Shown piece by piece: positions 408 through 57,591 of a stretch of DNA of 64,000 nucleotides. The stretch covers positions 89,772 to 153,771 of the forward strand of contig DASSSZ010000001.1 in the NCBI GenBank assembly GCA_035708165.1, in the 5' to 3' direction. Position 1 is the first letter of the stretch. Every line of letters begins with the position of its first letter. Both the position numbers and the translations under genes were made by a program. Below the pieces are notes generated by a model. That model searched no databases. It saw only the letters and a list, made by a program, of their open reading frames with translations, and was not told the DNA's origin. Source of the stretch: Minisyncoccota bacterium (GTDB lineage: Bacteria; Patescibacteriota; Minisyncoccia; Phycocordibacterales; UBA2100).

Positions 408-431
408 CCGCGGGTCGCGTAGAGTATGCGC

Positions 432-1472
432 ATGGCGAAGGGGGAGAAGGTATTCGTCGGGCTCTCCGGCGGCGTGGATTCGGCGCTTTCGGCCGCGCTT
501 CTCATCGAGCAGGGCTACGACGTCACGGGCGTGTTCATCAAGATCTGGCAGCCCGCGTTCACGCGCTGCACCTGGAAGGAAGACCGGCTTGCCGCCATGC
601 GCGTCGCGGTCGCGCTCGGGATCCCATTCGCGACGCTCGATCTCTCCGACGAGTACGAACGCGAAGTGATCGGCCGCATGCAGGCGGATTACCGGGCTGG
701 TCGCACGCCGAATCCCGACGCGCTGTGCAACCGCTTCATCAAGTTCGGCGCATTCCGGCGCTTCGCCGCGCTCCATGGCGCGGACCTCGTCGCGACCGGG
801 CACCATGCGCAGATCGAGAAGGGGAGCGGACGCCTCCTGCGCGGCGCCGACCCCGGGAAGGACCAGGCGTACTTCCTCTGGCAGCTCACGCGCGACGACC
901 TCCTGCACGCCCTGATGCCGATCGGCGGGATGACGAAGCAGGCAGTGAGGGAAGCGGCGCGCACGCGCGGCATCCCTGTCGCCGAGAGGCCGGACAGCCA
1001 GGGATTGTGCTTCGTCGGCGATATCGATATGCATGGGTTCCTCTCGGAGCTCCTCGCCCCTGCCCCCGGCATGGTGCTCGATGCCGCTGGCGCAATGATC
1101 GGCACGCATGACGGGGCAGCGCTCTACACGCTCGGAGCGCGGCATAAGTTCCGGATCACGGACCCGGACGCCGCGCCCGCGCCGCTCTATGTCATCGCGA
1201 CGGATGTTTCCGCCAATACGATCACTGTCGCGCCGAGCGCAACAGGAGCGATGCGCCGCGATGTCGCGCTGCTCGAGACGAACTGGTGCTCCGGGACAGC
1301 GCCGCAAGGCGGGCGCTATCTGGCGGAGGTGCGCTACCACCAAGAGCCGCAGGGCTGCACCCTCGAAGGCTCGCGCGTCATCTTCGATCTGCCGCAGCTC
1401 GCAGTGCCTGGGCAGTCGCTCGTGCTCTACGACGGCGCTGCATGCCTCGGCGGCGGCATCATCAGTGCATAG
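432..1472 (+). CDS. mnmA: tRNA-specific 2-thiouridylase MnmA
   Basis: The N-terminal PP-loop VFVGLSGGVDSALSAALL and the overall MnmA-like sequence. Start chosen at the ATG 6 nt after TAGAGT (leaderless pattern); an alternative ATG lies at 426. Confidence 0.85.
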   Translation: MAKGEKVFVGLSGGVDSALSAALLIEQGYDVTGVFIKIWQPAFTRCTWKEDRLAAMRVAVALGIPFATLDLSDEYEREVIGRMQADYRAGRTPNPDALCNRFIKFGAFRRFAALHGADLVATGHHAQIEKGSGRLLRGADPGKDQAYFLWQLTRDDLLHALMPIGGMTKQAVREAARTRGIPVAERPDSQGLCFVGDIDMHGFLSELLAPAPGMVLDAAGAMIGTHDGAALYTLGARHKFRITDPDAAPAPLYVIATDVSANTITVAPSATGAMRRDVALLETNWCSGTAPQGGRYLAEVRYHQEPQGCTLEGSRVIFDLPQLAVPGQSLVLYDGAACLGGGIISA

Positions 1473-1500
1473 CCGCATCGATGCGGTATCATACTCGCAT

Positions 1501-1872
1501 ATGCGCATGCGGATCCTGCAGGCCGTGCTCATCGTGATCGCGCTCGCGATCGTCGGCGGTGCGTCATTCGCGCTGAAAGGGAGCGGCGGCGCCGCGGTCA
1601 CGGTGAACGACTCGTACGAAGGCGGCATCCATCACGTACGCGGCACGGTACCCGTCCCTCCCTCATGCGCAGGAGTCGCCGTCTCGGCCACGGTCGTCGA
1701 CGGCACCGCGCATCTCGCATTCACGCCGGATTATGCTCCGGGCGCGAACGGCGCCTGCACGACCGTGACCGCGCCGCGCCCATACGAGACAAGCTTCAGC
1801 GGAGCACCCGCGCGCGCGTACGAGGCGACCGTCGAGGGACAGCCGGTCCCGGTGCGCATCATCAGCTCATGA
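1501..1872 (+). CDS. Small membrane-anchored hypothetical protein (N-terminal TM helix plus ~95-aa domain with 2 Cys), translationally coupled to the downstream nuclease gene
   Basis: Internal ATG of ORF 1108..1872 directly after the mnmA stop. It is preceded by the perfect palindrome CCGCATCGATGCGG and a TATCATACT -10-like box. The hydrophobic N-terminus is ILQAVLIVIALAIVGGASFAL. Its stop overlaps the next start (ATGA). Confidence 0.5.
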   Translation: MRMRILQAVLIVIALAIVGGASFALKGSGGAAVTVNDSYEGGIHHVRGTVPVPPSCAGVAVSATVVDGTAHLAFTPDYAPGANGACTTVTAPRPYETSFSGAPARAYEATVEGQPVPVRIISS

Positions 1873-2702
1873 GCAGGGAATTGCGGGTCATCAAGGCGGA
1901 CGGTGAGGAAGAGACCTTCGATCCGAGCAAGCTCGAAGCATCGCTCGCGCGGGCAGGCGCCTCGAGCGCAGCGCGCGCGCATATCATCGCGCACATGATG
2001 AAGGCGCTTGAACCTGCGCCGCTCACCACCTCTGAGATCTACCGGCGCGCGTTCGAGCTCCTGAAGAAACGCGAGGGCGCGCCGGTGGCCGCACGGTACT
2101 CCATCAAGCGCGCCATCTTCGATCTCGGGCCATCCGGCTACCCGTTCGAGCAGTTCTTCGCGGAAGTCATGCGCAGCCACGGCTGGCAGGCGCGCCATAG
2201 CGTGATCCTCACGGGCAGGTGCGTCACGCACGAGGTGGACGTTCTCGCGAAGAAGGGCGGCAAGCGCATCGGCATCGAAGCGAAGTTCCACAATACGCCC
2301 GGCATCAAGACCGATGTGAAGGATGCGCTCTATGTCCGCGCGCGGTACCAGGACCTCGCGGAAGCGACCGATCCCGACGATCACGTGGACCAAGGATGGC
2401 TCGTGACGAACACCCGCTTCACCGAAGATGCGATCCGCTACGGCGAGTGCGCCGGCCTCCCCATGATCTCGTGGGACTACCCGCGCCGCGGCAACCTCCT
2501 CGAGCTCATCGAGGAAGGGCAGGTGCACCCGCTGACGGCGCTCACCACGCTTTCGCCCTCGGAGAAGCAGCGGCTGCTCGACAGCCGCATCGTGCTGTGC
2601 CGCGCCGTGGGCGGCAGCAGCCAGCTGCTCCGCGAGCACGGCGTGAAGCCGCAGCGCATACCGGAAATCCAGGATGAAGCCCGCAAGCTCTGCGGGGCAT
2701 AA
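1869..2702 (+). CDS. ATP-cone domain fused to a restriction-endonuclease-like (Mrr-type PD-(D/E)XK) nuclease domain
   Basis: The N-terminal RVIKADGEEETFDPSKLEASLARAG matches the NrdR-type ATP-cone. The C-terminal HEVDVLA...RIGIEAKF gives a D...(D/E)xK motif of the Mrr_cat type. The ATGA overlap with the upstream ORF suggests an operon. Confidence 0.65.
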   Translation: MSRELRVIKADGEEETFDPSKLEASLARAGASSAARAHIIAHMMKALEPAPLTTSEIYRRAFELLKKREGAPVAARYSIKRAIFDLGPSGYPFEQFFAEVMRSHGWQARHSVILTGRCVTHEVDVLAKKGGKRIGIEAKFHNTPGIKTDVKDALYVRARYQDLAEATDPDDHVDQGWLVTNTRFTEDAIRYGECAGLPMISWDYPRRGNLLELIEEGQVHPLTALTTLSPSEKQRLLDSRIVLCRAVGGSSQLLREHGVKPQRIPEIQDEARKLCGA

Positions 2703-2757
2703 GGGCGGCTGGCGAGGCGTTTGACACCCCTCGCTCGGTGCGTCATCATACCTGCAT

Positions 2758-3872: not shown

Positions 3873-3918
3873 CAGACGGCCCCTCGCGGGGCCGTCTGCA
3901 TCTCTGTATACTGAAGCC

Positions 3919-4695
3919 ATGTCCTCGTTCTATACGCCGGACCGCGATCCCCGATGGAACTATGGCGGAGCAAAATGGAGGCTCTCCCGCTCGAAGATCG
4001 AGCTTTTCCTCGAATGCCCGCGCTGCTTCTGGCTTGATAACAAGCTCGGCACGGCACGCCCGAGGGGCCCGGGATTCACGCTCAACATCGCGGTCGACGC
4101 GCTTCTCAAGAAGGAGTTCGATGCGTACCGCGCGAAGGGGACCGCACATCCCCTGATGGCGCGCTACGGCATCGCTGCCGTGCCCTTCCGGCATGCGGAC
4201 CTGGATCGCTGGCGCGAAAATTTCGAAGGGATCGAGTACCGGCATCCGGCGAGCGGCCTCCTGGCCTGCGGCGCTGTCGATGATGTATGGATCGATCCGG
4301 CAGGCGAACTCATCGTGGTCGATTACAAGGCGACATCAAAGGACGGTGACATCAAGGCCCTGGAGGACTCGCCCTGGGCAGCCCAGTATCGCCGGCAGCT
4401 CGGCGTCTACCAATGGCTCTTGCAGCAGAACGGATTCACCGTCTCGAAGCGAGGGTACTTCGTGTACGCGAACGCACGCTCGGACAAGGAGGCGTTCGAC
4501 AGCAGGCTCGAATTCGATGTGACGATCGTGCCGTGCGACGGCGACACGACATGGATGGAAGCCACGCTCGTCGCCATCAGGCAGACGCTCGATTCCGATA
4601 TCATTCCGGCTGCCGGGACGAGCTGCGATTTCTGCCAATACCGGGACGCCGCTGGCAGGAAGCTCCGCTCATACGCCATGAAGGCACATGCATGA
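3919..4695 (+). CDS. PD-(D/E)XK nuclease family protein (Cas4/RecB-like, probable 4Fe-4S cluster)
   Basis: N-terminal CPRCFW Cys, C-terminal Cys triad (C...SCDFC) and a VVDYK core motif. The TATACT -10 box is 6 nt upstream of the ATG. Confidence 0.6.
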   Translation: MSSFYTPDRDPRWNYGGAKWRLSRSKIELFLECPRCFWLDNKLGTARPRGPGFTLNIAVDALLKKEFDAYRAKGTAHPLMARYGIAAVPFRHADLDRWRENFEGIEYRHPASGLLACGAVDDVWIDPAGELIVVDYKATSKDGDIKALEDSPWAAQYRRQLGVYQWLLQQNGFTVSKRGYFVYANARSDKEAFDSRLEFDVTIVPCDGDTTWMEATLVAIRQTLDSDIIPAAGTSCDFCQYRDAAGRKLRSYAMKAHA

Positions 4696-4975
4696 TATGA
4701 AAAGCGACTTCGCAGAACGCGTGCGCGCCGTAGTGCGGGCGATCCCGCAGGGCGAGACCATGACATACGGGCAGGTAGCGGCAGCGGCCGGGCATCCGGG
4801 CGCTGCGCGCGCCGTAGGCTCGATCATGAGACGCAATTACGATCCGAGCGTCCCGTGCCATCGCGTCATCCGCGCCAACGGGACGCTCGGCGAGTATAAC
4901 CGCGGCGGCCCGGAGGAGAAGCGCCGGAAGCTCATAGCGGAAGGCGTGCCCTTCGAGAGTGGGGATAACTCGTGA
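4688..4975 (+). CDS. Minimal MGMT-family protein (methylated-DNA-protein-cysteine methyltransferase DNA-binding domain with PCHRV active site)
   Basis: TYGQVAAAAG...PCHRVIRANG is the Ogt C-domain signature. It overlaps the upstream nuclease gene by 8 nt. Confidence 0.7.
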   Translation: MHDMKSDFAERVRAVVRAIPQGETMTYGQVAAAAGHPGAARAVGSIMRRNYDPSVPCHRVIRANGTLGEYNRGGPEEKRRKLIAEGVPFESGDNS

Positions 4976-5028
4976 CAAACACCCGTTCCCGTGGTATAGT
5001 CTTTGCAGGAGGATCCAGGAGGACGGCT

Positions 5029-5337
5029 ATGACCTGCAGTGGCTCGTTCAGGGGGGACGTGATCCCGCTCAACCGCCATCCCTACATGTTGAGCCGTGCA
5101 GCGCACGGCTTCCCGATGCGAGATATCGCGCGCAAGAGCTCGTTGGGCTTCTTCGAGAGCCTGATCGACGCCTCGTCCGGCGATGATCTCTTGATGCTGC
5201 TCCTGCTCATGCAGGATCGCGCCCGCTCGCTGCGGCATCCGACCTTCGGGAGCGACGCGTCGCTTCTCGAGCAGGATGACCGCGACATGCTCGCGCTTCG
5301 CATCGCCGATCGGCAGCAGAGGCTGCACGAGGAGTAA
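5029..5337 (+). CDS. Hypothetical protein (102 aa)
   Basis: Internal ATG of ORF 4972..5337. It is preceded by an extended -10 TGGTATAGT and two GGAGG SD motifs. No recognisable domain. Confidence 0.4.
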   Translation: MTCSGSFRGDVIPLNRHPYMLSRAAHGFPMRDIARKSSLGFFESLIDASSGDDLLMLLLLMQDRARSLRHPTFGSDASLLEQDDRDMLALRIADRQQRLHEE

Positions 5338-5374
5338 TCCTCGTGCAGCCTCCCTTTTTGCTATACTGGAGGCA

Positions 5375-6052
5375 ATGGCAGGCGCGGCGGTGCGGATCGA
5401 GCCCTCATGGAAGGAAGCGCTCGCGGGAGAATTCGACCAGGGCTACTTCCGCGCACTCACCCAATTCGTACGGGAGGAGTACCAGCATGCGATCATCTAT
5501 CCTCCGCCTCGCGACATCTTCCGTGCCTTCGAGCTCGCGCCATTCGATGCGGTCAAGGTCGTGATCCTCGGGCAGGATCCGTATCACGGGCCCGGGCAGG
5601 CGAACGGGCTATGCTTCGCCGTAGGCGCGGACGCGGCGCTGCCGCCATCGCTCCAGAACATCTTCAAGGAGATCGAGTCCGATCTCGGGAAGCCGCTGCT
5701 CCATCGGACGGGCGATCTTGCGCGCTGGGCCGCGCAGGGCGTGCTCCTGCTCAACGCGACGCTGACCGTCCGCGCAAGGAGCGCCGGTTCGCACCAGGGG
5801 AAAGGCTGGGAGGAATTCACCGATGCTGCCATCAAGGCGCTCTCCGAGCGGCGCGCGCACCTGGTCTTCATCCTCTGGGGGAACTACGCGAAGAAGAAAG
5901 GCGCGCACATCGACCGCAACAAGCATCTCGTCATCGAGTCGGCGCACCCGTCGCCCTTCGCCGCACGCTACGGCTTCTTCGGCAGCAAGCCGTTCAGCAG
6001 GGCAAACGCATACCTCGAAGCCCACGGGGAGCAGGCGATCGATTGGCTCTAG
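5375..6052 (+). CDS. ung: Uracil-DNA glycosylase (family 1)
   Basis: The motifs VVILGQDPYHG, GLCFAV and LLLNATLTV, plus HPSPFAA, are Ung signatures. TATACT lies 7 nt upstream of the ATG. Confidence 0.85.
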   Translation: MAGAAVRIEPSWKEALAGEFDQGYFRALTQFVREEYQHAIIYPPPRDIFRAFELAPFDAVKVVILGQDPYHGPGQANGLCFAVGADAALPPSLQNIFKEIESDLGKPLLHRTGDLARWAAQGVLLLNATLTVRARSAGSHQGKGWEEFTDAAIKALSERRAHLVFILWGNYAKKKGAHIDRNKHLVIESAHPSPFAARYGFFGSKPFSRANAYLEAHGEQAIDWL

Positions 6053-6086
6053 GCGCGCATCACCTCAGACGTGCTACAGTACGCGG

Positions 6087-7895
6087 ATGAAGAAGACGGA
6101 CAGCAAGGCCAGGAAGGGGAGTGCGCACGGTTTCAGGACCGCATGGGACTTATCGCTTTTCTACGCGCATCCGAGCGATCCCATGATCGAGAAGGACGCG
6201 AAGCGCATCGAGCGCGCGTACGAGGCGTTCGAGAAGAAGTACCGCGGCACGAAGGAGTACCTCAAGGGCGGCGCGGCGCTGCGTGCGGCGCTCAAGGATT
6301 ACGAGAAGCTCTACGTGACGCTGGACGGCGGCAAGCCCGCGCTCTACTTCGCGTACCGCAAGGAGCTCGATGGCGCCGATAGCGCATCCGAGGCGCGCAT
6401 GCGCCAGCTCGACGACCGCTTCACCAAGGCCGGCAACCGCGTGCAGTTCTTCGAGCTCTCGCTCGGGAAGATCCCCGTAGCCCGCAAAAAAGCGATCCTC
6501 GCCGATCCCGCGCTCGCGCGCTACCGGCGCGAGCTCGCGCACATCTTCGAGACAGCCGCGCATGATCTCAGCGAGCCCGAGGAGAAGATCATGTCGCTCA
6601 AGGCTGCCACGGCGCGCGGCATGTGGGTCTCCGGCGTGGATACGGCCGTCAACAAGCAGATGGTGAAGCGCGGCAAGAAAGAGATCCCTGTCAACGAAGC
6701 CATCAATCTCATCCCGTCCATCCCGAACCAGAAGGAGCGCCATGCGCTCTGGGACAGCACCATGGACGCGCTCGATCGCGTGAGCGACTTCGCGGAAAGC
6801 GAGCTCAATGCGGTCCTGACCGATAAGAAGATCAATGACGAGCTGCGCGGCTACAAGGAGCCGTACGAGGCGACCGTGCTCGCATACGAGAACGATCCGG
6901 CCGTCGTGCGATCGCTCATCGAGACAGTGACTGGCGCATTCCCGATCAGTCAGCGGTTCTACGCGCTGAAGAAGAAGCTCGCGAAGCTTCCGGAGATGCG
7001 TTACGCCGATCGCGGCATCTCGATCGGCAAGGTCGCGAAGAAATTCTCGTTCGAGGACTCGGTCGCGATCGTGCGCGATGCGTATGCCTCGATGAACCCG
7101 GAGTATGCCGCGATCCTCGATTCCTACCTCGCGCGCGGTCAGATCGACGTCTACCCCAGGCAGGGAAAGAGCGGCGGTGCCTACTGCTCGAGCGCATTCG
7201 GCAATCCCACGCTCGTCCTGCTCAACCACGTGGACGAGCCGCGCTCGCTCATGACGATCGCGCACGAGATGGGGCATGCGATCCACGCCGAGCGCGCCAA
7301 GAGCCAGCCGCCGCTCTACCAGGGACACTCGATCTCCGTCGCCGAGACGGCGAGCACGTTCTTCGAAGGCGTCGTCTTCGAGCGGCTGCTCGAGGGCCTT
7401 TCGCCGAAGGAGCGCATGATCATGCTCCACGACCGGCTGCAGGACGAGATCGCGACGATCCAGCGGCAGATCGCGTTCTTCAATTTCGAGCTCGCGCTGC
7501 ATACGCGCGTTCGCACGGAAGGCTGGGTCCCGAAGGCGGAGATCATGCGCATGCTGAACGAGGAGTGCGCGCGCTATCTCGGGAAGGCAGTCAAGATGCA
7601 GGAGCGCGACGGGCTCTTCTTCGTCGCCGTCAGCCACTTCCGCAACCCGTTCTACGTCTACTCGTACGCGTACGGCCAGCTCATCAGCAAGGCCCTCCTC
7701 GCGCGCGTGAAGGAAGACCCTGCGTATATCATGAAGGTGGACGAATTCCTCCGCGCGGGCGACTCGAAGAAGCCTGAGCAGATCTTCAAGGACATCGGCA
7801 TCGAGGTCGGGCCTGCGCTCTTCGCCGATGGGCTCGCGGCGATGGAGCGCGATATCGCTGAGCTCGAGCGACTTGCGAAGGCCGTGAATCGATAG
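6087..7895 (+). CDS. pepF: Oligoendopeptidase F (M3 family)
   Basis: The HEMGH zinc motif and overall M3B similarity. Start chosen at MKKTDSK, 6 nt after TGCTACAGT. Confidence 0.75.
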   Translation: MKKTDSKARKGSAHGFRTAWDLSLFYAHPSDPMIEKDAKRIERAYEAFEKKYRGTKEYLKGGAALRAALKDYEKLYVTLDGGKPALYFAYRKELDGADSASEARMRQLDDRFTKAGNRVQFFELSLGKIPVARKKAILADPALARYRRELAHIFETAAHDLSEPEEKIMSLKAATARGMWVSGVDTAVNKQMVKRGKKEIPVNEAINLIPSIPNQKERHALWDSTMDALDRVSDFAESELNAVLTDKKINDELRGYKEPYEATVLAYENDPAVVRSLIETVTGAFPISQRFYALKKKLAKLPEMRYADRGISIGKVAKKFSFEDSVAIVRDAYASMNPEYAAILDSYLARGQIDVYPRQGKSGGAYCSSAFGNPTLVLLNHVDEPRSLMTIAHEMGHAIHAERAKSQPPLYQGHSISVAETASTFFEGVVFERLLEGLSPKERMIMLHDRLQDEIATIQRQIAFFNFELALHTRVRTEGWVPKAEIMRMLNEECARYLGKAVKMQERDGLFFVAVSHFRNPFYVYSYAYGQLISKALLARVKEDPAYIMKVDEFLRAGDSKKPEQIFKDIGIEVGPALFADGLAAMERDIAELERLAKAVNR

Positions 7896-8188: not shown

Positions 8189-8217
8189 TGAGAGCGGGCC
8201 ATGCTATACTCGCCACC

Positions 8218-10113
8218 ATGAACGCGAACGAGATCCGCCAGAAGTTCCTGGATTTCTATGCTGCGCGCGGCCACGCCGTGATCCCGTCGGCCTCGCTCGT
8301 CCCGCAGAACGATCCGACGACGCTCTTCACAAGCTCCGGCATGCAGCCATTGGTCCCGTATCTCCTCGGCAAGGAGCACCCGGAAGGCAGCCGGCTCGCC
8401 GATTCGCAGAAGAGCTTCCGCAGCAACGACATCGAGGAGGTGGGCGACAACCGGCACACCACCTTCTTCGAGATGCTCGGCAACTGGTCCTTGGGCGACT
8501 ACTTCAAGGCGGAGCAGCTGCCGTGGATCTTCGAGTTCCTCACCGCAGAGGTCGGCCTCGACCCGGCGAAGCTCTTCGTGACCGTCTACTCAGGTTCGGC
8601 TGACGGGGCGATCCCGAAGGATGAGGAGGCGATCGCCATCTGGCAGAAGCTCTTCGCCGGCAAGGGCATCGAGGCGGCAGTGGCCGATATGGTCACCGAG
8701 GAAGCGGGCGCCCTGCGCGGCATGCGAGATGGCGAGCGCATCTTCGCCTATCGCGATAAGAACTGGTGGAGCCGCGCCGGCGCGCCGGACGCCATGCCGG
8801 CAGGGGAGCCGGGCGGGCCCGATTCCGAGATTTTCTACGATTTCGGCACCCCGCACGACCCCGCATTCGGCGCAGAGTGCCATCCCAATTGCGATTGCGG
8901 CCGGTTCCTTGAGATCGGCAATTCGGTCTTCATGCAGTACGTGAAGCGGGAAGACGGCACGTTCGGCCAGCTGCCGAAGCGGAATGTGGATTTCGGCGGC
9001 GGGCTCGAGCGCATCGCGACAGCCAAGGACGGCGACCCGGACGTCTTCACCTCGTCGCTCTTCGCGCCGCTCTTCGCTGCGATCGAGCGCCAGGGCGGCG
9101 TCGCATACGCGACGGCAGCGCTGCGCGAACGGCGCGCGCTGCGCATCGTCGCCGACCATCTGCGCGCGGCAGTCTTCCTCATCCATGACGGCGTCCTGCC
9201 GAGCACGACCGATCAGGGCTATTTCGTGCGCCGCCTGCTGCGTCGCGCGATCCGCTACGGGGAGCAGGTCGGCGTGACCGGCCTCGCCGCGCTCGTCCCT
9301 GCGATCGTCGGCGCCTACGAAGGCTACATCACGCTCGCCGAGCCTGCGCACGATATCGAAGCGGCCGTGCGCGAGGAGGAGGAGCGCTTCCGCGCCACGC
9401 TCACGCGCGGCATGCGCGAGTTCGAGCGCCTCGCCGCTGCAGACATCTCCGGTCGCGATGCATTCATCCTCTTCTCGACCTACGGATTCCCGCTCGAGCT
9501 CACGCAGGAGCTCGCGGCGGAGCGCGGCATCGGCGTCGATGAAGCCGGATTCAAGGAAGAGATGGGCAGGCATCAGGAGGAATCGCGCGCCGGCAGCGAG
9601 CAGAAGTTCAAAGGCGGGCTCGCAGATGCTTCGCAGGAGACAACGCGGCTCCATACCACGCACCACCTGCTTCTCAGGGCGCTCCAGATGGTCCTCGGGC
9701 CGGATGTGCACCAGCGCGGCAGCAACATCACGGCAGAGCGCCTGCGCCTCGATTTCTCATACGGCGAGAAGATGACGGACGAGCAGAAGCGCGAGGTAGA
9801 GCGCATCGTGAACGAGAAGATCGGCGAAGCGCTGCCGGTCACGCGCTCGATGCTCCCCAAGGAGGAGGCCGAGAAGCTGAACGCGGAGCACGAGTTCGGG
9901 GCCAAGTACCCGGACACGGTCTCCGTCTACTCGATCGGCCCGCGAGGCGCGACGCAGGATGCCCCGCGCTTCGCGGAAGCATTCTCGATCGAGTTCTGCG
10001 GCGGCCCGCACGTCTCCAATACGAGCGAGATCGCCGAGTCCGGCCGCTTCCGGATCGCCAAGGAAGAGGCATCATCCGCTGGCGTGCGCCGGATCAAAGG
10101 CGTACTCGAGTAG
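8218..10113 (+). CDS. alaS: Alanine--tRNA ligase, short form lacking the C-terminal C-Ala domain
   Basis: Class II catalytic core with N-terminus MNANEIRQKFLDFY...GH and the editing-domain motif HTTHHLL...H. It stops right after the editing domain (631 aa). The TGCTATACT -10 box is 7 nt upstream. Confidence 0.85.
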   Translation: MNANEIRQKFLDFYAARGHAVIPSASLVPQNDPTTLFTSSGMQPLVPYLLGKEHPEGSRLADSQKSFRSNDIEEVGDNRHTTFFEMLGNWSLGDYFKAEQLPWIFEFLTAEVGLDPAKLFVTVYSGSADGAIPKDEEAIAIWQKLFAGKGIEAAVADMVTEEAGALRGMRDGERIFAYRDKNWWSRAGAPDAMPAGEPGGPDSEIFYDFGTPHDPAFGAECHPNCDCGRFLEIGNSVFMQYVKREDGTFGQLPKRNVDFGGGLERIATAKDGDPDVFTSSLFAPLFAAIERQGGVAYATAALRERRALRIVADHLRAAVFLIHDGVLPSTTDQGYFVRRLLRRAIRYGEQVGVTGLAALVPAIVGAYEGYITLAEPAHDIEAAVREEEERFRATLTRGMREFERLAAADISGRDAFILFSTYGFPLELTQELAAERGIGVDEAGFKEEMGRHQEESRAGSEQKFKGGLADASQETTRLHTTHHLLLRALQMVLGPDVHQRGSNITAERLRLDFSYGEKMTDEQKREVERIVNEKIGEALPVTRSMLPKEEAEKLNAEHEFGAKYPDTVSVYSIGPRGATQDAPRFAEAFSIEFCGGPHVSNTSEIAESGRFRIAKEEASSAGVRRIKGVLE

Positions 10114-14238: not shown

Positions 14239-14240
14239 CC

Positions 14241-49061: not shown

Positions 49062-49152
49062 AGCCTGTCTAGTATGCCATACATCCCTGCCACGCACGAA
49101 TCCCCATGCGCCGAGCGTTCCCGCAATCCTGCCACGGTATACTGAAGCTACG

Positions 49153-50064
49153 ATGATGCAGCGCTATACGCACCACGGGCTCACGTGGATCGACCTCGAG
49201 ACGCCCACGCGCAATGAAGTGCGCGAGCTCGTGGACGAGTTCGGCATCGACTCGCTCGTCGCGGACGAGCTCTTGCTGCCGACAGCGAAGCCGCGGTTCG
49301 AGCGGCATGAGAACATGCTCTATCTCATCCTGCACTTCCCTGCCCTACACCATACGCACCACTCCGCCGAGCAGGAGATCGACTTCGTCGTCGGCAAGGA
49401 GTTCATCATCACGACCCGCTACGACATGATCGATCCGCTGCACAAGTTCTCGAAGACGTTCGAGGTCGGCGAGATGACGGGCACGAGCGGCATCGGCGAC
49501 CACGCCGGCTACATCCTCTACTTCATCCTGCGGAGCCTCTACGTCGCCGTGGATCACGAGGTGGAGTACGTGCGCACGTCGCTGCACGATATCGAAGAGC
49601 AGGTCTTCGAGGGCCGCGAGAAGGAGATGGTCGCCGCTATCTCCCATGCCGGGCGCGATCTCCTTGCGCTGCGGCAAGCCGTCGAGCCGCATCGCGACAT
49701 GCTGCAGGAGATGGAGATCGCCGGCCGCGCCTTCTGGGGCGACACCTTCGCCCCCTACCTGCGCGGCATCGTGAACGAGTACTACCGCGTGCACAATCAC
49801 ATCATGCGCAATACCGAGTCGCTGCATGAGCTGCGCGAGACGAACAATTCCCTCCTCTCGACGAAGCAGAACGAGATCATGAAGACGTTCACCATCATGG
49901 CGTTCGTCACGTTCCCGCTCATGCTCGTCACGAGCGCATTCGGCATGAACACCGTGCACACGCCGATCATCGGCGCGCCGTTCGATTTCTGGATCGTCAT
50001 CGGCATCATGCTCGGCTCGACAATCGGGCTGTACCTCTTCTTCAAGCTCAAGAAGTGGCTCTAG
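49153..50064 (+). CDS. corA: Magnesium/cobalt transporter CorA
   Basis: The C-terminal FGMN motif and two TM helices. TATACT is 9 nt upstream. Divergent from ctpA. Confidence 0.8.
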   Translation: MMQRYTHHGLTWIDLETPTRNEVRELVDEFGIDSLVADELLLPTAKPRFERHENMLYLILHFPALHHTHHSAEQEIDFVVGKEFIITTRYDMIDPLHKFSKTFEVGEMTGTSGIGDHAGYILYFILRSLYVAVDHEVEYVRTSLHDIEEQVFEGREKEMVAAISHAGRDLLALRQAVEPHRDMLQEMEIAGRAFWGDTFAPYLRGIVNEYYRVHNHIMRNTESLHELRETNNSLLSTKQNEIMKTFTIMAFVTFPLMLVTSAFGMNTVHTPIIGAPFDFWIVIGIMLGSTIGLYLFFKLKKWL

Positions 50065-50118
50065 CCTTTCGGGCAAAGCCGGGCGGCCTGCGGCCGTATC
50101 GGCTATAATGACGCCATC

Positions 50119-51672
50119 ATGGCCTGGTTCTCGGAGCCCGACAGCAGCACGCCGCGCGCCGCGAAGCACGCGGAGCGCCCCGTTACCCTGCACAACACGA
50201 TGGGCAACGCGGACGAGCCGTTCGCGTCCGCCCGGCCCGGCGCGCCGGTGCGCATGTATCACTGCGGCCCGACCGTCTACGGACCTGCGCACATCGGGAA
50301 CCTGCGCTCCTATGTCTTCGCCGATATCCTGCGGCGGACGCTCGAGTACAACGGCTTCTCAGTGAAGCAGGTCATCAATATCACCGACGTCGGGCACCTC
50401 TCGTCGGATGCGGACGAGGGCGAGGACAAGATGACGAAAGGCCTCAAGCGCGAAGGGCTCGCGGTGAGTCTCGAGAACATGCGCCTTCTGGCCGGCCGGT
50501 ACGAGGAGCGCTTCAAGCAGGATCTCGCCACGCTCGATATCGAGACGGCGGGCACGCAGTTCCCGCGTGCGAGCGAGCATATCGCGCCGATGATCGCGAT
50601 GATCCAGACGCTCGAGCAGAAAGGCTATACGTACAAGACGAGCGATGGCATCTACTACGATACGTCCCGCTTCCCTGAGTACGGCAAGCTCGGCGGGATC
50701 GATGTCGCCGCGCTGAAGGAAGGCGCCCGCATCGAAGCGAACGTGGAGAAGAAGAATCCTGCCGATTTCGCGCTCTGGAAATTCGATGATGCGCTCGGCT
50801 TCGAGAGCCCCTTCGGCAAGGGCTTCCCGGGCTGGCATATCGAATGCTCCGCCATGTCGCGCGTCGCCTTGGGCGAGCAGCTCGATATCCATACCGGCGG
50901 CATCGATCACATCCCTGTCCACCACAATAACGAGATCGCGCAATCTGAAGCCGCGACCGGCAAGAAGCCGTTCGCGCGGATCTGGATGCATAACGCGTTC
51001 ATCACCATTGACGACGAGAAGATCGCCAAGTCGCTCGGCAATGCGATCGACCTCGACGAGCTCCCGAAGCATGGCATCCACCCGCTCGCACTGCGCTACT
51101 ACTACCTCGGCGCGCACTATCGCACGCCCGTCAATTTCTCCTGGGCGGCGCTCAAGAGCGCGCAGCAAGCCCTCCTGCGCCTCCATTTCCTCTTCGACCA
51201 GATGCCGGTGAATGCTGCGGCCGAACCGATCATGGCGTACCAGCAGCGCTTCCACGAGCGGATCAACGCGGACCTCGATACGCCGGGGGCGCTCGCGATC
51301 GCCTGGGAGCTCGTGAAGGATACGTCCTTCCCTGCCCCGGCGATCCGCGCGACGCTGCTCGATTTCGATACGGTGCTCGGCCTCTCGCTCGGCGCGCCGG
51401 ATGCGCAGCTCGCGCGTCTCATCATCGCCGAGTTCGGCGAGATCGTCCCGGCCGAGAAGCTCTCGAAGACGGTCGCGGATCTCATCACCGCGCGCGAGGA
51501 GGCGCGGGGCGCCAAGGATTGGACGAAAGCGGATGCCTTGCGCGCGCAGGTCCTGCAGCTCGGCTACGCGCTTGAGGACACGCCGGCAGGCCCGCGCGTC
51601 CTGCGCAAGGAGATCGTCGAGCAGGAAGAGCGCGAGGCGGATACGGAAAGCGACCCCGAAGGGTCGCTGTAA
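50119..51672 (+). CDS. cysS: Cysteine--tRNA ligase (with ~45-aa N-terminal extension)
   Basis: The HIGH motif (PTVYGPAHIGN), the KMSKS motif (KIAKSLGN) and the zinc-binding Cys. TATAAT is 9 nt upstream. Confidence 0.85.
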   Translation: MAWFSEPDSSTPRAAKHAERPVTLHNTMGNADEPFASARPGAPVRMYHCGPTVYGPAHIGNLRSYVFADILRRTLEYNGFSVKQVINITDVGHLSSDADEGEDKMTKGLKREGLAVSLENMRLLAGRYEERFKQDLATLDIETAGTQFPRASEHIAPMIAMIQTLEQKGYTYKTSDGIYYDTSRFPEYGKLGGIDVAALKEGARIEANVEKKNPADFALWKFDDALGFESPFGKGFPGWHIECSAMSRVALGEQLDIHTGGIDHIPVHHNNEIAQSEAATGKKPFARIWMHNAFITIDDEKIAKSLGNAIDLDELPKHGIHPLALRYYYLGAHYRTPVNFSWAALKSAQQALLRLHFLFDQMPVNAAAEPIMAYQQRFHERINADLDTPGALAIAWELVKDTSFPAPAIRATLLDFDTVLGLSLGAPDAQLARLIIAEFGEIVPAEKLSKTVADLITAREEARGAKDWTKADALRAQVLQLGYALEDTPAGPRVLRKEIVEQEEREADTESDPEGSL

Positions 51673-51889: not shown

Positions 51890-54346
51890 CTACTCCGCAA
51901 GCACGAAATTGACCAGCCGGTTCGGCACGACGATCGTCTTCCCGATCGTCTTCCCTTCGATCCATTTCCCTGCCGCCGCCTTCGCCGCATCCGTGACGGT
52001 CGCCGCATCAGCGTCGCGCTCGACCGTCGCTGTCCCGCGCGTCTTGCCGTCCACCTGCACCGCGATCGTGGCTGTCTCCTGGACGAGCTTCGACTCGTCG
52101 TACGACGGCCACACGGAGCGGTGGATGCTTCCTTCGTGCCCCGAACGCTCCCAGAGCTCCTCGGTCATATGCGGCGCGAACGGCGCGAGCAGCTTGAGGA
52201 GCGCAGCCCACTGCGCGCGGCCGACCGCACCCTCCTTCTCGGCTGCATTGAGGAAGATCATCATCTGGCTCACGGCCGTATTGAACTTGAACGCCTCGAT
52301 ATCATCGCCAACTTTCTTGATGGTCTGATTGAGGAGCGGCTCGAGCGCCGGCGAATCATCTTCCGCCACCTTGTCCGCGAGCTTCCAGATGCGCTCGATG
52401 AAGCGCTGCGCGCCTTTGATGGAATCGGTGCTCCACGCGATCGTATTCTCGAAGGGGCCCATGAACATCTCGTATGTCCGGAACGCGTCCGCGCCGTACT
52501 CGGCCACGACATCGTCCGGATTGATCACGTTGCCGTAGCGCTTGCTCATCTTGCGGCCGTCCTCCGCGAGGATGAACCCGAGGAACTCGAGCCGCGCGAA
52601 CGGCTCCTCCGTCGAGACGACCCCGATATCGTAGAGGAACTTATGCCAGAAGCGCGCATAGATGAGGTGCCGCACGGCGTGGTCGCCGCCGACATAGACA
52701 TCCACCGGCGCCCAATGCTTCTCCTTCTCTGGCGCGACGAGGTACGCGTCATCGTGCGGATCCATGAAGCGCAGGTAGTACCAGGACGAACCTGCCCACT
52801 GCGGCATGGTGTTCGTCTCGCGCTTCGCGGGGCCGCCGCAGATGGGGCAGGTCGTGTTCACCCACTCGGCGATCGTCGCGAGCGGCGATTCGCCGGTGCC
52901 CGAAGGCTCATAGCTCTCCACTTCCGGCAAGAGGACCGGCAGCTGGTCCTCCGGCACCGGCACGGCGCCGTGCTCCGGGCAATGGATGATCGGGATGGGC
53001 TCGCCCCAGTAGCGCTGGCGGCTGAAGACCCAGTCCTTGATCTTATAGGTCGTCGCGAGCCGACCGCCGACCTTCTCGGTGATGGCCGCCTTCGCCTCCT
53101 CGCTCGGCATTCCGGTGAATGCGCCGGAATCGACCAGGAGGCCCGGCCCGGTGAAGAGGAACTCGGGCGTATCGAGCGCGCCTGCATGGGGCGACGGCTC
53201 GACGACAGTCCGGATCGGCAGGCCGAATTTCTTGGCGAACTCGTGATCGCGCCCGTCGTGCGCAGGGACCGCCATGATGGCGCCTGTGCCATAGCCGCCG
53301 AGGACGTAATCAGCGACGAAGAGCGGAATCTCCTCACCATTCGCCGGATTGATCGCCATGACGCCCTCGAGCCGGACGCCGGTCTTCTCCTTCCCTTCCG
53401 CGGCGCGTTCGATCTCATCCTTCGCGGCAGCGGCTTCCACGTACGCGCGCACGTCGCGCGCATTCGGAAGCACGCCCTCGTGCGCGGCATCGAGCGCGAG
53501 CGTCACCCATGGGTGCTCGGGCGCGAGCACGAGGTACGTCGCGCCGAAGAGCGTATCGGGCCGCGTCGTGAAGACGGTGATGTGCGCCTTCTCGCCGGCT
53601 GGGCCGCGGTTCTCATTGAGCGCAGGGTCGTCGAACCGCAGGTCGAAGTCGATCTCCGCGCCCTCCGAGCGGCCGATCCAGTTGCGCTGCGCTTCCTTGA
53701 TGTGCTCCGGCCATTCGAGCGTGTCCAGGTCCGCGAGCATGCGGTCCGCGTATGCCGTGATCTTGAGGACCCACTGCGGCAGCTTCTTCTTCTCGATGAC
53801 CGAGCCGCAGCGCTCGCATGTGCCGTCCGGCTCCAGGTCCTCGTTCGCGAGACCGGTGAGGCACCCGGGGCACCAGTTGATCGGCTCGTCGCTCTCGAAC
53901 GCGAGCCCGTGCTTGTAGAGCTGCAGGAATATCCACTGCGTCCACTTATAGAACGAGGGATCAGTCGTATTGATCTCGCGGCTCCAGTCGTAATCGAAGC
54001 CGATATGCGCGAGCTGCGCCTTGAAATTGGCGATGTTCTTCTCCACCGCGATCCGCGGATGCACCTTGTGCTTGAGCGCGAAATTCTCCGCCGGCAATCC
54101 GAACGCGTCCCAGCCCATGGGGTGCAGCACGTCGAACCCGTGCATGCGCTTGAAGCGGCTGTAGATGTCTGTCGCGATGTAGCCTTTCGGATGTCCTACG
54201 TGCAGCCCTTCGCCCGAGGGGTACGGGAACATATCGAGCACGTACGCCTTCGGCTTCGCCGGATCATCCGTCGTGCGGTAGATGCCCTCCTGGGCCCAGC
54301 GTTCCTGCCATTTCTTCTCGATCGCCGCGTGGTCGTACCGTTCCAT
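51890..54346 (-). CDS. leuS: Leucine--tRNA ligase
   Basis: The HIGH motif (PYPSGEGLHVGHPKGY), the CP1 editing domain and the KMSKS motif (KMSKRYGN). Start chosen at MERYDH. TGCTACGCT is 6 nt upstream. Confidence 0.9.
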   Translation of the reverse strand: MERYDHAAIEKKWQERWAQEGIYRTTDDPAKPKAYVLDMFPYPSGEGLHVGHPKGYIATDIYSRFKRMHGFDVLHPMGWDAFGLPAENFALKHKVHPRIAVEKNIANFKAQLAHIGFDYDWSREINTTDPSFYKWTQWIFLQLYKHGLAFESDEPINWCPGCLTGLANEDLEPDGTCERCGSVIEKKKLPQWVLKITAYADRMLADLDTLEWPEHIKEAQRNWIGRSEGAEIDFDLRFDDPALNENRGPAGEKAHITVFTTRPDTLFGATYLVLAPEHPWVTLALDAAHEGVLPNARDVRAYVEAAAAKDEIERAAEGKEKTGVRLEGVMAINPANGEEIPLFVADYVLGGYGTGAIMAVPAHDGRDHEFAKKFGLPIRTVVEPSPHAGALDTPEFLFTGPGLLVDSGAFTGMPSEEAKAAITEKVGGRLATTYKIKDWVFSRQRYWGEPIPIIHCPEHGAVPVPEDQLPVLLPEVESYEPSGTGESPLATIAEWVNTTCPICGGPAKRETNTMPQWAGSSWYYLRFMDPHDDAYLVAPEKEKHWAPVDVYVGGDHAVRHLIYARFWHKFLYDIGVVSTEEPFARLEFLGFILAEDGRKMSKRYGNVINPDDVVAEYGADAFRTYEMFMGPFENTIAWSTDSIKGAQRFIERIWKLADKVAEDDSPALEPLLNQTIKKVGDDIEAFKFNTAVSQMMIFLNAAEKEGAVGRAQWAALLKLLAPFAPHMTEELWERSGHEGSIHRSVWPSYDESKLVQETATIAVQVDGKTRGTATVERDADAATVTDAAKAAAGKWIEGKTIGKTIVVPNRLVNFVLAE

Positions 54347-54425
54347 AGGGCTAGCGTAGCACGCGCCCCATGACGCGAAAAGAGCCCGTAAGCGGGCTCT
54401 TTTCTGCGGAGCGATCGATGGATTC

Positions 54426-55428: not shown

Positions 55429-56529
55429 CTAGCTGTGCAAGAACTCCATCACGTCGCCATCTTCGACGATGTACTCCTTCCCTTCCGTGCGCAGCGCACC
55501 CTTCTCGCGCGCCGCCGCCCAGGAGCCAGCCGAGAGCAGCGCGTCCCAGCGGATGACATTGGCGCGGATGAACTTATCGCGGAAATCAGTGTGGATCCCC
55601 GCGCCCGCCTCGGGTGCCGTCGAGCCGCGAGAGACGGTCCACGCACGCGTCTCGTCTTCGCCCGTCGTGAAGAACGAGATGAGGTCGAGGATCTCATACC
55701 CCTTGCGGATGAGGTCGTTCACGCCGTCATCCATCACGCCGAGCTCGCGGCGGAATTCGGCGCGCTCGTCCTCGTGCACGTCCGAGAGCTCGTGCTCGAC
55801 GCCGGCATCCACGGTCACGAACGGCGCGCCCTGCTCATCGAAGAAATTCTTGAGGACGCGCCAGCGCTCGAGGCCTTCTTCCGCCACATTCACCGCGCCG
55901 CTCTTCCTGTTGAGGACGTAGAGGATCGGCTTCATGGTCAGGAGGTGCATCCCCTTCACGAGCGCGGACTCCGTGTCAGAGAGGTCGCAGGCACGCGCCA
56001 TGCGTCCGCTCTCGAGCGTCCCCCGGATGCGCTCGAGCACTGCCTTCTCGGCGATCGCTTCCTTATTGCCGGAGCGTGCATCGCGCTCAAGGCGCTCGAG
56101 CCGCTTCCCCACGCTCTGCATATCGGCGAGGACGAGCTCGAGGTTGATGACCTCGATATCATGCAGCGGGTCCACCTCGCCGGCCACGTGGATGATGTCC
56201 GGGTCGTCGAAGACGCGGACGACCTCGGCGATCGCATCCACTTCGCGGATATGCGAGAGGAACTGGTTGCCCAGCCCTTCGCCCTCCGATGCGCCAGCGA
56301 CCAGGCCCGCGATGTCCACGAATTCGACTGCTGCAGGGATGGTCTTCGCGGAATGCGAGAACGCCGAGAGCTGCGAAAGGCGGCTATCGGGGACGGATAC
56401 GACGCCGACGGACGGGTCGATCGTCGCGAAAGGGTAATTCGCGATGAGCACGCCCTTTTTCGTGAGCGCGTTGAACAGCGTGGATTTCCCCACGTTCGGC
56501 AGACCCACGATTCCTATCGAGAGGCTCAT
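55429..56529 (-). CDS. ychF: Ribosome-binding ATPase YchF
   Basis: The G1 motif GIVGLPNVGKSTLFNAL, a TGS C-terminal domain and YchF coiled-coil insertion. TATACT is 8 nt upstream. Confidence 0.9.
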   Translation of the reverse strand: MSLSIGIVGLPNVGKSTLFNALTKKGVLIANYPFATIDPSVGVVSVPDSRLSQLSAFSHSAKTIPAAVEFVDIAGLVAGASEGEGLGNQFLSHIREVDAIAEVVRVFDDPDIIHVAGEVDPLHDIEVINLELVLADMQSVGKRLERLERDARSGNKEAIAEKAVLERIRGTLESGRMARACDLSDTESALVKGMHLLTMKPILYVLNRKSGAVNVAEEGLERWRVLKNFFDEQGAPFVTVDAGVEHELSDVHEDERAEFRRELGVMDDGVNDLIRKGYEILDLISFFTTGEDETRAWTVSRGSTAPEAGAGIHTDFRDKFIRANVIRWDALLSAGSWAAAREKGALRTEGKEYIVEDGDVMEFLHS

Positions 56530-56612
56530 GAAAGAAGAGTATACGCGAGAGCGCCGCAGATCGGAATGAGACTCGCGGCGGGATTTCTAAACCCGCAACA
56601 TTATCCAGACGT

Positions 56613-56634
56613 GGAAAAGGCGCCCGAAGGCGCC
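56613..56634 (-). terminator. Rho-independent terminator (minus strand)
   Basis: GGCGCC-TTCG-GGCGCC followed by TTTTCC on the minus strand. Confidence 0.5.
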
Positions 56635-56802
56635 TTCTCCATGTACCCGACTCCATGTACCTGACATGGCTCCGAAGGGCTATATCAAGTACATGGAATC
56701 GAGTACGAGGAAACCTTACCCTATCAGGGACTTGCACGCAAGTACGTAATATTGCGTAATAATCCGCCTCCCCCTGCGGCTGGATGCCCCGCATGGGCGC
56801 GA

Positions 56803-57039
56803 TCAGTTCTTCGTATGCGGCGCGATCGCCTTGAGCTCCGCTTCGTGCCGCTTCGCAACTGTCATCATCGCCAGCATCTGATTGCCGCCGTTCTTCTTCA
56901 TCTCCTCTTGTGCTTCCTCTGCGATCGTCATCAGGAGATCGGGGTGCTCATCCACCATGCGCATCGCGGCATCCTGCTGGTCGCGCGGAAGCTTCTTGAT
57001 CTGCGCTTTCATCATCTGCTTCATCAGGAATTGTTTCAT
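56803..57039 (-). CDS. Methionine-rich small helical protein (78 aa), hypothetical
   Basis: 12 Met in 78 aa. TGCTATACT is 6 nt upstream of the ATG. Divergent from marR. Confidence 0.45.
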   Translation of the reverse strand: MKQFLMKQMMKAQIKKLPRDQQDAAMRMVDEHPDLLMTIAEEAQEEMKKNGGNQMLAMMTVAKRHEAELKAIAPHTKN

Positions 57040-57129
57040 CGCTCGAGTATAGCACGAGGTCCGGACGGCATGCAGATGTGAACAGTAAATAGTTGATATT
57101 GCAACAATGAGATGCTATCCTGGCTCCGT

Positions 57130-57591
57130 ATGGCATCCGGCACTGATCCGCGGACACGGGAGCTCCTGCGTCTCATCCACCAGACCGTCTTCATGTTCGA
57201 CCGCGCAGCGGACCACCAGCTGCGCGAGCGTTCGCTCGGGACCTTCCCGCAGTTCCTGATCATGACCGCGATCGACCGCTTCCCCGGCCTGACGCAGCAG
57301 AAGATCGCGGCATTCCTCCATGTGACGCCGGCTGCGGTGAGCCGCATGCTCGATACGCTCGTCGAAGCGGGTTACGTGAGCCGTACCGATAAGCTCGGCA
57401 GCCGGCGCGCGCATGCCGTCGCTCTGACCGCCGCCGGACGGCGGCGCTTCGAGCGGATGGACGCGTTGGTCTCGAGCCAGGCGGCGATCGTGACAGCAAC
57501 GGTCCCGCGCGCGGAGCTGGAAGCGACGCTGCGCACGCTCCACGCGCTGCACGAGACGGTTGCCGAGGCATGCGTCCCGCATCACGGATAG
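57130..57591 (+). CDS. MarR-family transcriptional regulator
   Basis: The wHTH LTQQKIAAFLHVTPAAVSRMLDTLVEAGYVSR. TGCTATCCT is 8 nt upstream. An alternative start lies at 57112. Confidence 0.75.
   Translation: MASGTDPRTRELLRLIHQTVFMFDRAADHQLRERSLGTFPQFLIMTAIDRFPGLTQQKIAAFLHVTPAAVSRMLDTLVEAGYVSRTDKLGSRRAHAVALTAAGRRRFERMDALVSSQAAIVTATVPRAELEATLRTLHALHETVAEACVPHHG

Follow-up and report, generated by a model that had tools for sequence, protein, structure and literature searches.

Many genes in a 64,000-nucleotide (nt) stretch of DNA from a Minisyncoccota bacterium (GenBank assembly GCA_035708165.1, contig DASSSZ010000001.1, positions 89,772 to 153,771), here called the window, carry a bacterial -10 promoter hexamer directly before the start codon. 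We define a leaderless class of genes by the hexamer TAnnnT at a spacer of 5-10 nt before the start codon; 27 of the 60 genes in a curated table belong to it, with the consensus TGnTATACT, and near-misses bring the count to 31. These boxes are very probably sigma-70-type extended -10 promoters, whose sequence and placement suggest that they would produce leaderless transcripts. The identity, position and enrichment of the motif, its promoter-like flanks, the absence of Shine-Dalgarno (SD) sequences and the conservation of the arrangement across the clade are direct observations.

The motif is enriched in the window and coincides with gene starts. The exact nonamer TGNTATACT occurs 6 times against 0.25 expected (24-fold), and TATACT occurs 19 times against 3.8 expected; 12-13 of these 19 sites are followed, 6-9 nt on, by an ATG that opens a long open reading frame (ORF) with third-position GC content (GC3) above 0.78. 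Genes were called with a codon log-odds model that had learned from long ORFs of the window itself and was blind to upstream sequence; it yielded about 61 genes, and gene names were confirmed by Pfam. Among the 2,166 ATG triplets on both strands, 54 bear TAnnnT at a spacer of 5-9 nt. Exactly 21 of the 54 are the start chosen by the motif-blind coding-potential model, where about 1.5 would be expected (binomial P = 6.7e-19), and five further motif-linked ATGs lie within a few codons of such a start.

An origin by chance, or through the AT-rich composition of intergenic DNA, is refuted by these controls and retains a negligible probability. AT content is indeed higher in intergenic than in coding DNA, the TAnnnT pattern is loose, and TAnnnT-N5-9-ATG shows only a modest excess over the whole window (54 against a shuffle mean of 36). 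Composition nevertheless leaves unexplained the enriched nonamer, the exact coincidence with motif-blind starts, and the sharp spacer peak that appears in relatives and is missing from Escherichia coli under the same pipeline (see below).

The spacer is 6 nt in 15 genes and 7, 8 or 9 nt in 4 genes each; 26 of the starts are ATG and 1 is GTG. The four near-misses are GATACT (spacer 6) at 10172, GATAAT (spacer 6) at 21123, TGGCATACT (spacer 9) at 49061 and TTGACA-17-CATCAT (spacer 8) at 2758. A sequence-only reading of the window had put the number of such genes at about 28 of 60, close to our count, and its 13 quoted examples (alaS, grpE, the gene at 12060, scpA, mraY, dnaJ, cysS, leuS, rplI, ychF, the Met-rich gene, the dnaQ-like gene and pepF) are all exact in box, spacer and gene. 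Leaderless-class genes and near-misses are given below with box, spacer and start codon; fractions of orthologues are those with a -10 box at 5-10 nt.

417-434, + strand: mnmA; GCGTAGAGT, 6 nt, ATG 432; terminator hairpin upstream at 375-397
1484-1503, + strand: hypothetical membrane protein; CGGTATCAT, 8 nt, ATG 1501
2721-2760, + strand: DUF7282 gene; near-miss -10 with a perfect -35, TTGACA-17-CATCAT, 8 nt, ATG 2758
3904-3921, + strand: PD-(D/E)XK nuclease gene; CTGTATACT, 6 nt, ATG 3919; -33 kcal/mol hairpin directly upstream
5359-5377, + strand: UDG-family gene; TGCTATACT, 7 nt, ATG 5375; terminator T-tract merges into the box
6072-6089, + strand: pepF; TGCTACAGT, 6 nt, ATG 6087
8202-8220, + strand: alaS; TGCTATACT, 7 nt, ATG 8218; 45 of 51 orthologues
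10157-10174, + strand: histidine phosphatase gene; GGCGATACT, 6 nt, ATG 10172; near-miss
10846-10863, + strand: hypothetical protein of 390 aa; CTTTATAAT, 6 nt, ATG 10861; 37 of 38 orthologues
12045-12062, + strand: hypothetical protein of 449 aa; TGGTATACT, 6 nt, ATG 12060; 29 of 42 orthologues; alignments from residue 1
17602-17619, + strand: grpE; TGCTATACT, 6 nt, ATG 17617; terminator at 17575-17597 and its T-tract abut the box; 66 of 76 orthologues
21108-21125, + strand: M16 peptidase gene; GCGGATAAT, 6 nt, ATG 21123; near-miss
22408-22426, + strand: dnaJ; TCGTATAAT, 7 nt, ATG 22424; 40 of 63 orthologues
23548-23565, + strand: hypothetical protein of 160 aa; CGCTATACT, 6 nt, ATG 23563; 8 of 9 orthologues
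26809-26828, + strand: hypothetical protein of 377 aa; GTATACACT, 8 nt, ATG 26826
30725-30742, + strand: histidine kinase gene; TGCTATCAT, 6 nt, ATG 30740; terminator-like hairpin upstream
32382-32418, + strand: trpS; TTGAGA-16-TGGTAACAT, 6 nt, ATG 32416; 21 of 25 orthologues
34766-34783, + strand: scpA; CGGTATACT, 6 nt, ATG 34781
37170-37190, + strand: mraY; TGCTATACT, 9 nt, ATG 37188; predicted transcription start at the A at -3
41917-41935, + strand: DUF3450-like gene; TGGTACAAT, 7 nt, ATG 41933; box overlaps the gltX stop codon
44874-44911, + strand: xerC/integrase gene; TTTACA-17-TAGCAT, 6 nt, ATG 44909
46518-46538, - strand: dnaQ-like exonuclease gene; TGCTACACT, 9 nt, ATG 46520
46928-46945, - strand: hypothetical protein of 129 aa; CGGTATACT, 6 nt, GTG 46930; the sole non-ATG leaderless candidate, gene uncertain
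47721-47738, - strand: rplI (bL9); TGCTAGACT, 6 nt, ATG 47723
49059-49079, - strand: S41 peptidase gene; TGGCATACT, 9 nt, ATG 49061; near-miss, with TAnnnT in 3 of 3 orthologues
49135-49155, + strand: corA; CGGTATACT, 9 nt, ATG 49153; 11 of 13 orthologues
50101-50121, + strand: cysS; GGCTATAAT, 9 nt, ATG 50119
54344-54361, - strand: leuS; TGCTACGCT, 6 nt, ATG 54346; terminator hairpin upstream
56527-56546, - strand: ychF; GCGTATACT, 8 nt, ATG 56529; product begins MSLSIGIVGLPNVGKS
57037-57054, - strand: Met-rich gene of 78 aa; TGCTATACT, 6 nt, ATG 57039
57093-57132, + strand: marR; TTGATA-17-TGCTATCCT, 8 nt, ATG 57130; divergent from the Met-rich gene

Promoter-like anatomy and start codons

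The flanks of the box resemble those of a promoter. In a logo of the 27 genes anchored on the hexamer, T stands at -3 in 16 and G at -2 in 20 (0.7-0.8 bit at these positions), and the full TGn is present in 14. The -35 region of the same logo holds no information, and no conserved -35 was found among the 27 promoters; classical -35/-10 pairs are found mostly at leadered genes. Among relatives, 33% of matches have the TGn, and a weak TT stands 22-23 nt before the box, the position at which a -35 element would begin given 17-nt spacing. The canonical distance from a -10 box to the transcription start is 6 nt, and a pyrimidine at -1 with a purine at +1 is the preferred start dinucleotide, expected 6-8 nt past the hexamer. 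The commonest spacer in the window equals the canonical distance, and a pyrimidine directly precedes the A of the ATG in 23 of 27 genes. All four spacer-9 genes have a purine 7 nt after the box, and 3-nt leaders are therefore predicted for them.

The boxes are also placed as promoters would be with respect to neighboring genes. A hairpin of -20 kcal/mol or stronger lies within 48 nt before the box in 10 of 27 leaderless-class genes, versus 1 of 33 other genes. A terminator scan gave no overall enrichment of intrinsic terminators; only the hairpins directly upstream of boxes stand out. When the gap to the preceding gene is below 16 nt, the motif is found in 1 of 15 genes (the DUF3450-like gene), compared with 26 of 45 others; the corresponding figures in relatives are 7-21% for short-gap genes and 53% for gaps of 16-100 nt. 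Together, the extended -10 anatomy, the spacing, the terminators and the distribution within operons fit a promoter and are unlike a ribosome-binding element.

Two further arrangements concern the same elements. At 5319-5367 (UDG) and 17575-17610 (grpE), terminator and promoter are fused: a GC-rich hairpin is followed by a T-tract that runs into TGCTATACT, and the last bases of the tract supply the TG of the extended -10 (TTTTGCTATACT). In such a fusion, one transcript would therefore end and the next begin within about 25 nt. Back-to-back divergent promoter pairs, 16-91 nt apart, lie at 46893-46949 (rpmA and the 129-aa gene, with TATACT on both strands 16 nt apart), 49059-49155 (S41 peptidase and corA) and 57037-57132 (Met-rich gene and marR).

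These observations bear on the idea that TAnnnT is a non-SD ribosome-binding or translation-enhancing signal on leadered mRNAs, in the style of group B genomes or Bacteroidetes. A clade without SD signals needs some other translation signal, and an AT-rich element in a GC-rich genome would lower local mRNA structure. Such a signal should, however, also occur at operon-internal genes, where the motif is scarce both in the window and among ribosomal-protein gene orthologues (8-22%); TGn, the weak -35 TT at 17-bp spacing and the abutting terminators are features of promoters; and leadered genes have a different upstream context, A-rich, G-poor and with T at -1. We consider a translation signal very unlikely.

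We propose the following mechanism. A sigma-70-type extended -10 element (TGnTAnnnT, no conserved -35) would recruit RNA polymerase at these genes. Transcription would start at the A of the ATG with spacers of 6-7 nt and 1-3 nt upstream with spacers of 8-9 nt, so that the mRNA would begin with the start codon or a vestigial leader, and its 5'-terminal AUG would be engaged by the ribosome and initiator tRNA without SD pairing. Leaderless promoters would serve about 58-67% of the genes whose upstream intergenic gap is 16 nt or more, which are probably the first in their transcription units. Some of the remaining genes would be coupled to the preceding gene (overlap or a gap of 1-15 nt), and others would have short or long SD-less leaders that are A-rich and G-poor with U at -1.

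The start codons themselves are well supported. Canonical N-termini begin at the motif-linked ATG in DnaJ, LeuS, YchF, AlaS (MNANEIRQKFLDFY), bL9 (MQVIFLKDV), MnmA and TrpS, and tblastn against related loci gives alignments from residue 1 for alaS, the 449-aa hypothetical gene, dnaJ, trpS, scpA, corA, rplI, ychF and the dnaQ-like gene. Upstream of the conserved N-terminal block of cysS, ATG 50119 is the only start codon. Motif-linked starts differ from the longest ORF in 16 of 27 genes. Structure is weaker over the 36 nt that follow a start than in internal segments; this holds at leaderless-class and other starts alike and does not discriminate between them. One start outside the class is ambiguous: in the D-Ala-D-Ala carboxypeptidase gene (dac, 36104-36162), coding potential prefers ATG 36160, and ATG 36115 has GGAGG 6 nt before it, inside the 3' end of scpB; homologues align only from residue 61.

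A second alternative accepts the boxes as real promoters and places the true starts downstream, behind ordinary leaders, the coincidence with ATG being a product of start re-assignment. The sequence-only reading did choose starts by the motif, and a close second in-frame ATG exists at grpE (17623), corA (49156) and mnmA (426/432). We give this alternative little credence: motif-blind coding starts coincide exactly in 21 genes, N-termini are canonical and alignments begin at residue 1, cysS offers no alternative start codon, and the peak in relatives was obtained under a mechanical first-ATG rule.

A third alternative, mixed expression, in which a gene has its own leaderless promoter and also forms the distal part of read-through transcripts, is possible and clearly more probable than the other two, but we do not favor it. 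Many leaderless-class genes lie 26-80 nt behind a same-strand gene, and a strong upstream hairpin is present in only about 10 of 27, with no overall terminator enrichment. It qualifies the promoter reading without contradicting it, and on a read-through mRNA these ATGs would have no SD and mostly no U at -1 (C in 13 of 27).

The core claim of the sequence-only reading is that, for about half of the genes, transcripts begin at the ATG or a few nucleotides from it, taken here as no more than 3 nt. Every sequence-level test that was run supports this claim, on account of the extended -10 anatomy, spacing, -1 pyrimidine, abutting terminators, operon-internal scarcity and orthologue conservation. 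Several points weigh against it or limit it. That transcripts begin at the ATG is a strong inference from sequence, and how ribosomes would load onto them is inferred as well. TAnnnT is demanded by the class definition, and only the flanking features and placement are independent. Spacers of 8-9 nt (8 genes) imply leaders of 1-3 nt, not strictly none. Transcription from upstream may reach some genes too, since a terminator turned up for only about a third of the class. Finally, the double GGAGG at 5029 leaves room for SD pairing that may still be working; the window does not include a 16S 3' end.

Genes outside the leaderless class

SD sequences are rare in the window. An SD at working distance precedes only 3-4 of 60 genes: 5029 (two GGAGG), 29531 (GAGGAGG), 7933 (AGGA) and possibly the alternative dac start at 36115. 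None precedes 29-30 of the 33 non-leaderless genes, among them the whole infA-rpsI operon and dnaK. Pairing was measured as the duplex energy, averaged over starts, between the anti-SD and the 20 nt upstream: it is -2.0 kcal/mol for leaderless-class genes, -2.8 for other genes and -3.0 for random 20-mers, whereas 55 annotated E. coli starts give -6.2 against -2.35 for random 20-mers. GGAGG is not enriched in the whole window (145 occurrences, 166 expected). The main genes and the operon outside the class are as follows.

4972-5031, + strand: SD-led gene at 5029; GTGACA-17-TATAGT; GGAGG in the leader at 5008 and 5018; ATG 5029
13411-17510, + strand: infA-rpmJ-rpsM-rpsK-rpsD-rpoA-rplQ-rplM-rpsI operon; promoter TTGACC-17-TAGTAT (13411-13439), leader of about 14 nt
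18342-18421, + strand: PaaX-like gene; TTTACA-17-TATAGT, leader of about 43 nt with only a weak GAAGGG, ATG 18419
19010-19161, + strand: dnaK; TTGACG-16-TACAAT, leader of about 115 nt without SD, ending in gaatactcactATG
29520-29533, + strand: SDR/NAD_binding_4 gene, SD-led; GAGGAGG, 4 nt, ATG 29531; in a low-GC stretch
39408-39436, + strand: murG; TGCTACACT, 17 nt, ATG 39434; short leader without SD at functional distance, T at -1
46893-46949, + strand: rpmA (bL27); TTGATT-17-TATACT, 25 nt, ATG 46947; short leader without SD

The sequence-only reading had described the alternative to leaderless genes as a classical promoter with a leader and a strong GGAGG, naming four cases. The SDs at 5029 and at the SDR gene are real, and classical -35/-10 promoters with leaders do exist at the infA operon and the PaaX-like gene; the strong GGAGG is absent from both of the latter. 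As a description of the class, the SD-led architecture fails: upstream pairing energies of the non-leaderless genes are at background. A third class consists of short SD-less leaders, at infA (about 14 nt), murG (17 nt), rpmA (25 nt) and rpoA (11 nt after its -10). The rpoA promoter, TTTACA-17-TACAGT at 15332-15360, lies inside the infA operon; no start in this operon has an SD, and the upstream sequences are G-poor with T at -1 in most.

A base directly 5' of the start codon distinguishes these genes. T stands at -1 in 21 of 33 non-leaderless genes (64%), compared with 5% of internal in-frame ATGs and 10% of all ATG triplets (P ~1e-14 to 1e-16); leaderless-class genes have C there in 13 of 27. 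Related loci have T at -1 in 62% of their 768 non-leaderless genes and, for rpsD, rpoA, rplQ, rplM, rpsI and dnaK, in 87-94% of orthologues, against 26% in E. coli and 34% in SD-type loci. Positions -2 to -8 of leadered starts in relatives are A-rich and G-poor. In E. coli, U at -1 pairs with A37 of the initiator tRNA and gives initiation a modest boost (Hollerer & Jeschek 2023, PMC10018350; Esposito 2003 cited there). The leadered starts described here resemble that system in having U directly 5' of the start codon. In E. coli, however, U(-1) modulates initiation on top of the SD, and here it would be the dominant, near-invariant signal without an SD. By analogy, U(-1):A37 pairing could be a main SD-independent determinant of start sites in these bacteria.

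It had also been suggested that the dual architecture marks horizontally acquired genes. Only the SDR gene at 29531, which lies in a low-GC stretch with poor codon scores, is a plausible case. The window has a GC content of 64%, and the stretch at 24-32 kb has 58-60%. Within it, 24000-30700 (GC 58-60%, poor codon scores) encodes three large hypothetical proteins without Pfam hits in addition to the SDR/NAD_binding_4 gene, and looks horizontally acquired.

The PaaX-like gene is associated with a palindrome. CTGTAA-N3-TTACAG (15 bp) occurs in two adjacent copies at 18319-18348 and at 19054-19083, and nowhere else in the window (0 expected). The first pair overlaps the -35 of the PaaX-like promoter, and the second lies in the dnaK leader just past the promoter (19010-19037). 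No exact copy was found in 160 related loci. The palindromes are likely operators of the PaaX-like protein, which is encoded between grpE and dnaK and is a candidate repressor of chaperone genes.

Conservation in related Patescibacteria

Two sets of relatives, 160 loci in all, were compared: the 80 loci with the best GrpE matches in a set of 185,579 species genomes (L001-L080), and CysS-linked metagenome loci (L081-L160). All 80 best GrpE loci belong to metagenome-assembled genomes (MAGs) of Patescibacteria (Kaiserbacteria, Nomurabacteria, Paceibacterota, Parcubacteria), with GrpE identities of at most 51%; the best identities in related loci are 73% for RpoA, 78% for DnaK and 65% for AlaS. 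The gene order alaS-hyp-hyp-infA-ribosomal protein genes-rpoA-...-grpE-dnaK-dnaJ is common to 50-80 of the 80 loci. The window has a short rplM (uL13, 119 aa) and retains rplI (bL9). Parcubacteria likewise have a short uL13 and have kept bL9, whereas Saccharibacteria and Microgenomates lost it (PMC9297842). Judged by its marker proteins and gene order, the window belongs with the Parcubacteria/Paceibacteria. A deinococcal or actinobacterial origin, which GC content and motif might suggest, was ruled out by the 80 of 80 Patescibacteria GrpE loci and by synteny. The GC content of 64% is unusually high for a member of the Patescibacteria; related loci range from 31% to 62%, the highest being a soil MAG.

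No close relative was present in the genome and metagenome collections searched: the best GrpE match was 51% (genomes), the best CysS match 57% (metagenomes), and nothing was nearer than about 50-78% protein identity; the assembly index likewise has no record of the window's DnaK. With no close relatives for promoter footprinting, orthologues were compared at the level of the clade, and starts in relatives were taken mechanically as the first ATG of each composition-called ORF. Across 1,225 genes of the 80 GrpE-linked loci, TAnnnT lies at spacer 6-9 in 37%, at 16-19 in 8% and at 1-4 in 12%, and an SD 4-mer lies at 4-10 in 5%. In 48 genes from 50 kb of E. coli, the corresponding values are 4%, 2%, 12% and, for the SD 4-mer, 42%. 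The peak in relatives persists across all GC bins between 31% and 58%.

Gene by gene, orthologues keep their class, leaderless or leadered, as judged from their upstream sequences. A -10 box at 5-10 nt is found in most orthologues of leaderless-class genes (alaS 88%, the 390-aa gene 97%, the 449-aa gene 69%, grpE 87%, dnaJ 63%, trpS 84%, corA 85%, the 160-aa gene 89%), versus few orthologues of leadered genes (infA 17%, rpsM 15%, rpsK 12%, rplQ 11%, rpsI 8%, aspS 16%).

The CysS-linked loci were set aside as a replicate; they are a mixed set and served instead as an internal contrast. Some contigs are leaderless-type with few SDs (e.g., L083-L087, L113, L125, L136), and others are SD-type with no -10 peak (e.g., L105, L137, L143, L153). 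The spacer test therefore discriminates leaderless-type from SD-type loci, and the two types of contig suggest a sharp lineage boundary.

Known leaderless systems and Parcubacteria translation

That Actinobacteria and Deinococcus use leaderless initiation, with a -10 box some 7 nt ahead of the ATG, is textbook knowledge. GeneMarkS-2 places such genomes in group C, in which the first genes of operons have a Pribnow box 6-8 nt before the start codon and 25-50% of transcripts are predicted to be leaderless; the group is frequent in Actinobacteria and Deinococcus-Thermus and includes a few Proteobacteria and Firmicutes (PMC6028130). Examples are Mycobacterium tuberculosis, M. smegmatis, Streptomyces, Corynebacterium and Deinococcus deserti (PMC6028130, citing Cortes 2013, Shell 2015 and de Groot 2014); of 262 D. 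deserti genes whose transcription and translation starts have both been mapped, 167 are leaderless (PMC6028130). The window resembles group C in its TAnnnT-type -10, weak or absent -35, mostly AUG starts and scarcity of the motif at operon-internal genes. It differs in that leadered and internal genes of group C use SD-type ribosome-binding sites, which only 3-4 of the 60 genes here possess, and in its phylum. The architecture is thus of a known leaderless-rich kind in a new phylum, and it is the lineage, which the sequence-only reading had not recognized, that lifts the finding above routine. A full-text literature search found no paper describing leaderless genes in Patescibacteria or its subgroups; coverage was incomplete, and novelty is unproven.

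A parallel for the SD-less leadered genes comes from the archaeon Haloferax volcanii, in which most transcripts are reported to be leaderless and most leadered ones to have no SD motif (PMC3986360). To that extent, the non-leaderless genes here are alike. H. volcanii, however, uses TATA/BRE elements about 26 nt upstream and archaeal initiation factors, in place of a bacterial extended -10.

On the ribosomal side, a 16S rRNA without the CCUCCU anti-SD is a mark of the uL1-lacking subgroup of Parcubacteria. rRNA was found neither in the window nor in the 160 related loci, and rplA is likewise not in the window. Tsurumaki et al. (2022, PMC9297842) detected the CCTCCT anti-SD in no more than 48% of 16S genes from Parcubacteria and judged that SD helices probably fail to form there; that study covered rRNA and ribosomal proteins, without mRNA upstream regions or promoters. 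The loss it describes matches the missing SD signal in the window and the 80 related loci, which are of the same broad lineage.

We are evenly divided on a clade-wide reading, taken as a whole. It holds that Parcubacteria/Paceibacteria, including Kaiserbacteria- and Nomurabacteria-like members with 31%-64% GC, would largely have given up SD initiation; that about 40% of genes would be leaderless from extended -10 promoters; that leadered and internal AUGs would be chosen through an unstructured, G-poor leader and a near-invariant U(-1) in four-base pairing with A37; and that this would be the mRNA-side counterpart and explanation of the loss of the 16S anti-SD. No statement of this reading was found in the literature.

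The study that noted the missing anti-SD in half of the Parcubacteria left unsaid how their mRNAs are then read; to this question the window and 80 related loci offer an answer that is concrete and can be tested. Many starts in these genomes will be misplaced by gene callers that presuppose an SD or choose the longest ORF. Expression tools under development for Patescibacteria would need leaderless or U(-1) designs over SD cassettes.

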